Virus record (IMG/VR): IMGVR_UViG_2648501437_000035
Source of the DNA: a virus
Lineage: Duplodnaviria > Heunggongvirae > Uroviricota > Caudoviricetes
DNA: 23,537 nucleotides
Strand: one strand, 5' to 3'
The notes beneath the pieces are model-generated. The model did not search any database. It was not told where the DNA came from and saw nothing but the letters and a program-made list of their open reading frames with translations. Both the position numbers and the translations under genes were made by a program. Below, in pieces: positions 1,334 through 2,850 of the stretch; within the stretch, counting starts at the first letter, position 1; every line of letters starts with the position of its first letter.

Positions 1334-1808
1334 GCAGTAAATCCTTTCTATATTTTGGCATAATTCTTCAACATTCGGTAATCGTTCAAAACCGAATCGG
1401 GGAAACGACATAAGCACAGGAGCCCCCAGCGACAGCGAAGGAGTTCTGATATATAAGACTCAGACATCATTCATTCCCCGGTTCTCCAATATCTGTTTCA
1501 CTCATCATCCATAACTACCTGTAATTGCCCCCCCTTTTTTTGTAACAGTTCTTATATTGCTATATAGAACAGCCATTACTAATGCATTTAAATTTAATAA
1601 AATAAAAATTATAAAAAACATAAAACACCACGCAAACACACTTAATAAAAACACCGTTACATTAAAAGATAATAAAAACCGCAATAAAAAACAAATAAAT
1701 CAATTGTCTCACGCAATTATAAAACATCATATTGATTACGCACCTTGTATTACAAACTCATGTATGTAAAATACGCGCACCATTCAAAAAAAAGGAAGAC
1801 AATAACAT

Positions 1809-2768
1809 ATGAAAAAAAGTGTCATCGCTGGCGTCTTTATTGCTCTGTCATTTACCACGTGTTCAGCTATCGCGAACAGCCTTGCATTATCATTAGCAAA
1901 TGATGATGCAGGGAAGTTTCAACCAATACTTAATGATATTTATGGCAATAAACATGAAAACAGAGATGATTACTCACAAGGCTTATTTCTGGGATATAGC
2001 CACGATATCTCAGACTCGAGCCAATTATCTCTCCATATTGCGCAAGATATTTACTCTCCATCAGGCAGTAATAAAAGACACAACACAGCTGTAACTGGAG
2101 ACAGAGCTTTTAGTGCATACACTCACACTGGTATTGAATGGAACTCCCTTGCGAATGACTGGATTCGCTATCGATTAGGTACTGACATAGGTGTTGTTGG
2201 CCCCGACGCAGGCGGTCAGAAAGTACAAAATAAAGCTCATGAGATTATTGGGGCAGAAAAATATCATGCATGGGATGATCAAATAGAGAATCGCTACGGT
2301 TATACTGTAAAAGGGATGCTATCCATGACACCAAGTATGGATATTTTAGGTGCTAATGTTGGATTATACCCTGAAGTTTCTGCTGTTACTGGAAACTTAT
2401 TTCAATATGTAGCATATGGCGCAACCATTGCCATTGGTAATGATAAAACCTTCAATTCGGATAATGGCTTTGGTCTGCTGGCTCCCCGTGGTTTAATGCA
2501 TATGTCCGATACAAGCGGATTCAAATACAAGATTTTTGCAGGTATGGAAAGACGAGATGTCAATCGCAACTATACTCTCGAAGGAAAAACAATACAGACG
2601 AAACAAACAACAGTATCGCTAAACAAAACTGTTGATGAATATCAAGTTGGCGCAACAATTGGGTATGCACCTGTAGCCTTCACACTAGCATTTAATAAAG
2701 TAACATCAGAATTCAAGACAGGGGATGACTATTCATTTATAAATGGAGCAATCACCTTCTTTTTTTAA
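1809..2768 (+). CDS. lpxR: LpxR-family outer-membrane lipid A 3'-O-deacylase (cargo/moron gene)
   Basis: 319 aa with N-terminal signal peptide (MKKSVIAGVFIALSFTTCSAIA) and C-terminal aromatic residues (ITFFF) typical of beta-barrel outer-membrane proteins. Length and motifs (GDRAFSA, HTG-EWN, GYSHD) match my recollection of Salmonella LpxR. Opposite strand to flanking phage genes, AT-rich upstream region, own hairpin downstream. Confidence 0.65.
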   Translation: MKKSVIAGVFIALSFTTCSAIANSLALSLANDDAGKFQPILNDIYGNKHENRDDYSQGLFLGYSHDISDSSQLSLHIAQDIYSPSGSNKRHNTAVTGDRAFSAYTHTGIEWNSLANDWIRYRLGTDIGVVGPDAGGQKVQNKAHEIIGAEKYHAWDDQIENRYGYTVKGMLSMTPSMDILGANVGLYPEVSAVTGNLFQYVAYGATIAIGNDKTFNSDNGFGLLAPRGLMHMSDTSGFKYKIFAGMERRDVNRNYTLEGKTIQTKQTTVSLNKTVDEYQVGATIGYAPVAFTLAFNKVTSEFKTGDDYSFINGAITFFF

Positions 2769-2815
2769 CTGAATTGAATTCAATCAAAATAACATAAGTC
2801 CAACAAAAACATAAA

Positions 2816-2850
2816 GTGCGAAATGAATGCCAGCTCCATTTATTTCGCAC
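2816..2850. terminator. strong hairpin (14-bp stem) between lpxR and the phosphatase gene; terminator-like, especially on minus strand
   Basis: GTGCGAAATGAATG (2816-2829) pairs with CATTTATTTCGCAC (2837-2850), one G-U pair, 7-nt loop. On the minus strand it is followed by a U-rich tract (UUUAUGUUUUUGUUGG); on the plus strand it follows the lpxR stop by about 50 nt. Confidence 0.5.

Follow-up and report, generated by a model that had tools for sequence, protein, structure and literature searches.

lpxR, a lipid A 3'-O-deacylase gene in an antisense cassette at the Q joint of a lambdoid prophage

The DNA analysed here is a 23,537-nucleotide stretch of a virus of the class Caudoviricetes (IMG/VR record IMGVR_UViG_2648501437_000035), referred to as the window throughout, in which a lipid A deacylase gene of the LpxR type had been predicted from the letters alone (the original prediction). 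The explanation that best accounts for our results, and that we hold with high confidence, is that this gene, lpxR, would encode an active LpxR and serve lysogenic conversion, and that it is carried in a low-GC cassette, antisense to the phage operon at a joint in the antiterminator gene Q, with an upstream region and a 3' stem-loop of its own. The gene is already known from annotation, from the structure of its family, from enzymology and regulation, and from epidemiological and vaccine work.

Identity and active site of the predicted deacylase

The lpxR coding sequence (CDS; 1809–2768, plus strand, stop codon included) specifies a 319-aa predicted precursor of an outer-membrane lipid A 3'-O-deacylase. 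An open reading frame (ORF) of this length, opposite in orientation to the phage operon, is what the original prediction had described at about these coordinates, and its resemblance to LpxR was borne out in both profile and structure-based sequence comparisons. Against Pfam PF09982 (LpxR) the product scored 137.4 bits (E = 6.8e-40; cut-off 26), with ORF residues 10–318 covering profile positions 2–320 of 323. The match to the crystal structure of Salmonella Typhimurium LpxR (3FID) was full length (E = 3.6e-153), pairing query residues 24–319 with chain residues 2–296 across a single one-residue gap. Amino acid identity was 72–73% to Salmonella LpxR precursors and 69% to Yersinia enterocolitica LpxR, and the RefSeq protein at the identical O157:H7 position (WP_000750155.1) is named ‘lipid A deacylase LpxR family protein’.

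Inspection of the sequence pointed to a signal peptide in residues 1–22 (1809–1874, plus strand; MKKSVIAGVFIALSFTTCSAIA, ending A-I-A) and to an aromatic C-terminal residue (...ITFFF), and the N-terminal signal together with the FFF end would fit an outer-membrane barrel. Homology models published for the O157 protein, which is identical to that of the window, superpose on 3FID (PMC6863877). On these sequence grounds we read 1809–2768 as the gene for LpxR, predicted to be a Sec-exported, 12-stranded outer-membrane beta-barrel hydrolase. The founding member of the family, S. Typhimurium LpxR (3FID), is likewise 319 aa long, shares the catalytic and Ca2+-binding residues and also ends in Phe (FFF). 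Its gene, unlike the prophage gene of the window, is chromosomal, with a nucleotide identity of ~69% and no homology outside the CDS, the 3' hairpin included. A scan of genome contigs for relatives of lpxR returned 11 loci (Citrobacter, Salmonella arizonae, Salmonella diarizonae and distant metagenome-assembled genomes).

Mature residues are numbered as precursor minus 22, because residue 2 of the mature chain in 3FID pairs with residue 24, and the same numbering has been published for the O157 protein (PMC6863877). Every catalytic or Ca2+-binding residue was found in the window protein: precursor N31, D32, D33, S56, K89, R90, Q140, H144, E150 and Y152, corresponding to mature N9, D10, D11, S34, K67, R68, Q118, H122, E128 and Y130, as well as mature K129. 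In an alignment with 14 relatives (53–99% identity) these positions were invariant, except for S/T at mature 34. In Yersinia LpxR, deacylation is abolished by N9A, D10A, S34A, Q118A and H122A (PMC3486919); H122 has been proposed as the general base, with the essential Ca2+ held at N9/D10/T34 (PMC6260217). For the O157:H7 protein, studied as MC001, residues 31, 32, 56, 140, 144 and 150 have been published as the active site (PMC6863877).

An LpxR-like barrel that has diverged into an inactive form, acting, for example, purely as a receptor or surface antigen and leaving lipid A untouched, is very improbable. A latent LpxR does have a precedent in the Yersinia enzyme at 21 °C, where latency was tied to D31 and to aminoarabinose-modified lipid A (PMC3486919), and the window protein carries D31; PHROGs, in addition, labels the LpxR family (phrog_2309) ‘unknown function’. 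However, all residues whose mutation kills activity are intact, D31 is the family norm with G at this position only in Salmonella, the CDS is identical across hundreds of genomes, and lipid A deacylation dependent on the identical O157 gene has been reported (as cited in PMC6863877). The triplet D31/S34/Q35, linked in the Yersinia paper to exclusion of aminoarabinose-modified lipid A (PMC3486919), is shared by the window protein, Yersinia and most relatives, whereas Salmonella has G31/T34/A35. We therefore rejected it as a special ‘Yersinia-like’ trait, since it represents the consensus of the family, from which Salmonella departs.

Published activity and control of the identical gene in O157

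The predicted consequences of the gene, namely 3'-O-deacylation of lipid A and a weaker TLR4 response, have been reported for the identical O157:H7 gene (Ogawa et al. 2018, as cited in PMC6863877, PMC6393859 and PMC7649339). According to these citing papers, an lpxR mutant of strain Sakai shows less lipid A deacylation (PMC6863877, PMC6393859) and gives stronger NF-kB and p38 responses via TLR4 (PMC6863877), and O157 lpxR is activated by Pch and Ler (PMC6863877, PMC6393859, PMC7649339). The gene has been placed in the modulon of Ler and the enterocyte effacement locus (LEE) (PMC9263587) and is statistically associated with the LEE across strains (PMC6724679). Its control by Pch and Ler is reported to be separate from transcription of the phage operon. 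MC001, the O157 LpxR homologue, acts as a protective antigen and was found in 97% of 224 genomes of enterohaemorrhagic Escherichia coli (EHEC) (PMC6863877).

The small RNA (sRNA) MicF is reported to repress Salmonella lpxR. For the 5' region of MicF against the lpxR mRNA of the window, the best RNAduplex energy was −17.1 kcal/mol, which was equalled or bettered by 97 of 300 shuffled seeds.

An insert at a joint in Q

The phage genes flanking lpxR all lie on the minus strand, placing lpxR antisense to the pR delayed-early operon, between nin and Q. To the right are ninI, coding for a calcineurin-like phosphatase (2980–3645, minus strand), ninG (3642–4304, minus strand) and a gene for an HNH endonuclease with an AP2-like domain (4219–4866, minus strand), which overlaps the start of ninG. 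The endonuclease gene is not found at this place in lambda or phage 434 and is probably a homing-endonuclease-type insertion. Between ninI and lpxR, alignment with lambda revealed a remnant of about the first 23 codons of a lambda-type Q (2912–2983, minus strand), in translational overlap with the ninI stop; RefSeq labels it a partial ‘antitermination protein’ pseudogene and the phage 434 record an ‘N-terminal fragment’ of lambda Q. To the left, the pR operon resumes downstream of the insert with a small ylcG-like gene (1348–1467, minus strand; RefSeq ‘YlcG family protein’; phrog_2705; 85% nucleotide identity to ylcG of DLP12). It is followed by an intact late-gene antiterminator Q of the phage-82 type (644–1333, minus strand; Pfam PF06323, Phage_antiter_Q, E = 1.7e-91), which is annotated in O26, O157 and phage 434. 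The longest ORF of this Q reaches 1417, and databases place its start (MNT) at 1333.

The insert was delimited by its homology breaks with other lambdoid phages. On the right, identity to lambda spans ninI and the first ~70 nt of Q and ends at 2913; on the left, homology to K-12 DLP12 (rusA-ylcG-quuD) starts at ~1479, at the ylcG ribosome-binding site. These edges give an insert of ~1.43 kb at about 1480–2912. The GC content was 39.4% for lpxR, 26–29% for its flanks, 45–46% for Q, ninI and ninG and 44.6% for the window, and this difference in base composition marks the insert as foreign.

A prophage of strain O39:NM F8704-2, integrated at the same ybhC site, provided a natural ‘empty site’ without lpxR. 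In blastn comparisons, positions 1–597 and 2913–4400 of the window were 97–99% identical to it, and window positions 598–2912 stood in place of 671 bp, where that prophage has an intact lambda-type Q of 207 aa. Lambda likewise runs from ninI straight into an intact Q with no lpxR. The exchanged unit is therefore larger than lpxR, with its right-hand joint inside the old Q gene: a module at 598–2912 comprising a promoter-proximal Q-82-type late region, Q, ylcG and lpxR replaces the body of lambda Q. The lpxR cassette appears to travel with the phage-82-type Q module.

We class lpxR as a moron, a gene for lysogenic conversion, carried by a lambdoid prophage. The comparison with lambda and O39:NM F8704-2, both of which lack lpxR at this place, upheld the prediction of an oppositely oriented moron between the nin region and Q. 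Classical lambdoid morons, such as bor and lom of lambda or stx of the Stx phages, are, in the definition of Hendrix and Juhala, dispensable genes of deviant base composition that have their own signals, are expressed from the prophage and alter the host surface or virulence. lpxR resembles them in being an extra gene with a different base composition. It differs in its antisense placement upstream of Q in the delayed-early operon, where it occupies a joint in a truncated Q, and in not lying in the late region or beside tail genes.

The upstream region

Upstream of lpxR lies an AT-rich, A-tract-rich candidate regulatory region (1471–1808, plus strand). Its GC content of 29.3% is among the lowest 1.2% of same-size intervals in the window, and it contains 12 A/T runs of at least four bases (35.5/kb vs 12.9/kb for the whole window), several of which are about 9–12 bp apart. 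Such a region had been predicted and is present, at a length of 338 bp rather than the ~370 bp first given. We consider 1471–1808 likely to be a regulatory region and, by inference, a target of H-NS, Ler and Pch. Silencing of lpxR by H-NS would be consistent with both the AT-rich tract and the published dependence on Pch and Ler, since upstream DNA of this composition is a common type of H-NS target from which Ler lifts the silencing.

The last part of this region (1744–1808, plus strand), which we regard as the promoter-proximal core and 5' untranslated region, is the sole upstream part that aligns with a plasmid-borne lpxR variant, the homology beginning at 1744. By our own reading it contains a candidate −35 element (TTGTAT, 1745–1750) and −10 element (TAAAAT, 1767–1772) separated by a 16-nt spacer, which could plausibly serve as the lpxR promoter. 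A Shine-Dalgarno sequence, AGGA(AG), lies at ~1793–1798, and a ribosome-binding site is annotated at the equivalent position of phage 434.

A very hydrophobic 59-aa ORF with a TTG start (1505–1684, minus strand) is also found inside the AT-rich tract. It is unannotated in the records examined and is most likely a by-product of the T-rich composition of that strand.

The 3' stem-loop

A stem-loop begins 47 nt past the lpxR stop (2815–2851; arms 2815–2829 and 2837–2851, with a 7-nt loop at 2830–2836). The predicted hairpin is therefore present, with a stem of 15 bp (14 Watson-Crick pairs and one G.U) instead of 14. This fold in the plus-strand RNA has an energy of −19.1 kcal/mol (z = −5.7 vs shuffles). 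In the minus-strand RNA the G.U turns into a C.A mismatch, leaving 14 pairs, five of them G-C, and an energy of −16.6 kcal/mol (z = −2.7). The tail that follows the stem is U-rich on the minus strand (2798–2814, A-rich on the plus strand; UUAUGUUUUUGUUGG), whereas the plus-strand tail, AUAAAAGAUUAAAAG, is not.

Sequence comparisons indicate that the stem-loop is part of the lpxR cassette rather than of the phage backbone. The hairpin sequence occurs once per genome in exactly the 620 complete E. coli genomes that have this lpxR allele. We accordingly rejected a dispersed repeat. In the plasmid-borne lpxR the stem is identical and the A-tract before it equivalent, while the loop and everything beyond differ; in strain OkiPb01679, a 75-nt stretch has only three substitutions, each of them within the loop. 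The 3' flanks of lpxR in Salmonella and Citrobacter are unrelated to it. The stem thus appears to be under some constraint, as judged from conservation and not from covariation.

Rfam searches of the whole window at gathering thresholds, and of 1–3100 at E values up to 1, gave nothing in 1420–2960, the sole matches being those at 568–637 and 16347–16405 described below. A 2026 preprint (Zhu, Shabalina, Storz) describes Hfq-binding sRNAs, PasD1 and PasD2, lying at most 10 kb from ‘Q plus LpxR’ in >98% of cases, and a PasD variant in two phage genomes; the latter are possibly the two phage 434 records. A role of the hairpin as the PasD terminator was dropped, as the preprint puts pasD by the sialate esterase gene downstream of Q and not beside lpxR.

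Distribution and other lpxR lineages

The CDS of the window is identical over 960/960 nt in E. coli O157:H7, O145:H28, O111:H8 and O103, and an allele of at least 99% identity occurs once each in 620/5,426 complete E. coli genomes. In O157:H7 the gene (WP_000750155.1; the vaccine candidate ‘MC001’) lies in a CP-933K/Sp3-type prophage adjoining ybhC. The locus is 99.1% identical to window positions 1–4160 and shares the order ninG, ninI, lambda-Q remnant, lpxR, ylcG and Q as well as the 3' hairpin; further to the right the window prophage has another mosaic structure. The best single-place match of any complete E. coli genome covered no more than 66% of the 23.5-kb window.

Among 50,697 deposited phage genomes, two encode LpxR and both are records of phage 434. 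Its LpxR protein is 100% identical, the 1.5-kb region around the gene is 99.2% identical and window positions 1–4160 are 99.3% identical, with lpxR likewise located between a lambda-Q fragment and ylcG plus a Q82-like Q. The gene (CPT_434_65, OL657226) bears the annotation ‘outer membrane beta-barrel lipid A deacylase LpxR’. Phage 434 differs from the window in lacking 9 bp of the AT-rich spacer on the right of the hairpin, and it is a viable phage, whereas many EHEC copies of lpxR lie in decayed prophages. The literature library searched contained no paper on the phage 434 genome or on phage 434 LpxR.

Two further lineages were identified in E. coli, both with the same invariant active-site columns as the window protein. 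The plasmid lineage (~80% nucleotide identity) was found in 20 plasmid records of the complete-genome set; several of the copies in PLSDB cover only residues 1–269, and on plasmid pJNE23-011 (NZ_AP045068.1, 2937–4025) lpxR lies amid insertion sequence (IS) remnants. Its alignment with the window runs from 65 bp before the start (window position 1744) to the stop and, after a 21-nt gap, resumes with the hairpin stem. The other lineage, at ~72% nucleotide identity, was found in three E. coli chromosomes. One of these, ECOR29 (NZ_CP197071.1, 12722–14253), encodes a 315-aa LpxR (~70% amino acid and 72% nucleotide identity) adjoining iraM in a different lambdoid prophage. The ECOR29 gene sits between a region with Q, a methyltransferase gene, tRNA-Ile and tRNA-Lys and a set of SASA esterase, holin and lysozyme genes. 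In Stx phages, stx occupies roughly this place. The ECOR29 copy looks like an independent capture by a phage.

Other elements in the window

Directly after the Q stop (568–640, minus strand), a promoter-like TTGCAA...TATACT is followed by a short hairpin and T8 (AACCCGCTGCCGAGTGGGTTTTTTTT). The arrangement resembles the late promoter of the phage-82-type Q system together with its first terminator. Rfam gave a weak match to STnc240 at 568–637 (E = 0.24), and homology to the sister prophage with a lambda-type Q resumes at 597, inside the element.

A 617-aa ORF (5285–7138, plus strand) is a second opposite-strand, low-GC gene, located inside the nin region. The O39:NM F8704-2 record labels it ‘hypothetical protein’, and it had no match in Pfam, NCBIfam or PADLOC, its only match being to phrog_9230 (‘unknown function’). 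A perfect-looking array of (AAATAG) x 11.8 lies at 4980–5050, ~235 bp upstream of this ORF, and could be a slippage-prone (phase-variable) element. The lambda cIII thermoregulator, an RNA element (Rfam RF01804), is matched over its full length and with a high score (88.5 bits) at 16347–16405 (plus strand).

Discussion

LpxR would turn hexa-acylated lipid A into a tetra-acylated form that is a poor stimulant of TLR4/MD-2. In the lysogen, with pR off, lpxR would be read from its own AT-rich promoter region, at the position we infer above. In LEE-positive E. coli this region would be activated by Pch and Ler, as reported for O157, presumably against silencing by H-NS. After induction, pR transcripts on their way to ylcG and Q would have to cross the stem-loop and then traverse lpxR in antisense for ~1.4 kb. 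The stem-loop and U-tract of the minus strand resemble an intrinsic terminator, through which N-modified polymerase would be expected to read. N-modified polymerase reads through the tR terminators of lambda, and the N gene is present in this prophage type.

Several results weigh against parts of this account. No match to the high-affinity H-NS motif (TCGATAAATT-like) was found in 1471–1808, nor was the motif enriched anywhere in the window. A consensus scan called no sigma-70 promoter upstream of lpxR, and the activity and regulation of the gene rest on secondary citations. The hairpin is not a textbook terminator on either strand, as the sense strand of lpxR is without a U-tract and the antisense strand has the C.A mismatch, and a rule-based consensus scan of 1300–3100 called no terminator on either strand. 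The 620 chromosomal copies are all at least 99% identical and so offer no covariation in support of the stem. The ‘strong minus-strand terminator’ is the least well supported item of the original prediction: a U-tract does lie on the minus strand, but the mismatch, the silence of the scan and the membership of the hairpin in the lpxR cassette all count against its strength. A minus-strand terminator role is plausible.

The stem-loop could instead be mainly a 3' element of lpxR itself on the sense strand, either stabilising the transcript or acting as a weak terminator without a U-tract that spares ninI and ninG, with little effect on pR transcripts. We regard this as a real possibility, if somewhat short of an even one. 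It is favoured by the stronger, mismatch-free fold of the plus strand (−19.1 vs −16.6 kcal/mol) and the position of the hairpin 47 nt past the lpxR stop. The hairpin also occurs only where lpxR does and accompanies the gene outside the phage, the plasmid copy having an identical stem within a different loop and flanks, and the curated phage 434 record, which marks many terminators, marks none here. However, neither in the phage nor in the plasmid copy is the plus-strand tail, AUAAAAGAUUAAAAG, rich in U, and the A-tract before the stem, which provides the U-tract of the minus strand, is kept in both. In both contexts, moreover, a convergent gene faces lpxR across the hairpin, which also fits a terminator of the incoming strand or a bidirectional one. 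Action on incoming pR transcripts and a main role as the 3' element of lpxR are not mutually exclusive, and we consider them roughly equally likely.

A stronger regulatory proposal, in which the antisense cassette and its terminator-like hairpin, canonical in form solely for incoming pR transcripts, make Q, the late genes and lysis more strictly dependent on N while head-on lpxR transcription, with the Pch/Ler regulon switched on, lowers Q and so couples the virulence state to lysis, strikes us as unlikely. The constant linkage to phage-82-type Q and the presence in phage 434, which is viable, would be in keeping with a role in regulation in addition to conversion. It is similarly doubtful that lpxR is kept mainly for the benefit of the phage, through effects on the adsorption of competing phages, vesicle release or lysis, with the TLR4 effect as a by-product. 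Phage 434, a free-living laboratory phage from Paris sewage, does carry the gene without a link to the LEE. At least three captures by mobile elements are apparent (at the nin/Q joint, in the ECOR29 late region by iraM and in IS-flanked plasmid islands), and lipid A deacylation by PagL has been reported to drive vesicle formation in Salmonella (PMC4958258). Nevertheless, the orientation of the gene and its AT-rich promoter point to expression in the lysogen and not in lytic growth, co-regulation with the LEE by Pch and Ler has been published and the association with LEE-positive strains is strong, and the two phage 434 records are the only 2/50,697 deposited phage genomes with lpxR.

We therefore favour the lysogenic-conversion explanation, under which the window contributes one more copy of an established LpxR biology and answers no open question. 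What our analysis adds is anatomical: the boundaries of the insert, the joint in a truncated lambda Q, the co-transfer with a Q-82 module, a stem-loop common to the plasmid copy and a second, independent prophage site for a diverged lpxR. lpxR rides as a compact cassette, with 65 bp of promoter-proximal sequence before the gene and a conserved stem-loop after it, and does so on plasmids as well. LpxR lowers the endotoxic activity of lipid A, and in EHEC and enteropathogenic E. coli it belongs to the virulence regulon of Ler and Pch and is a vaccine candidate. Phage 434, with an identical gene, offers a simple K-12 system for studying phage-driven remodelling of lipid A.

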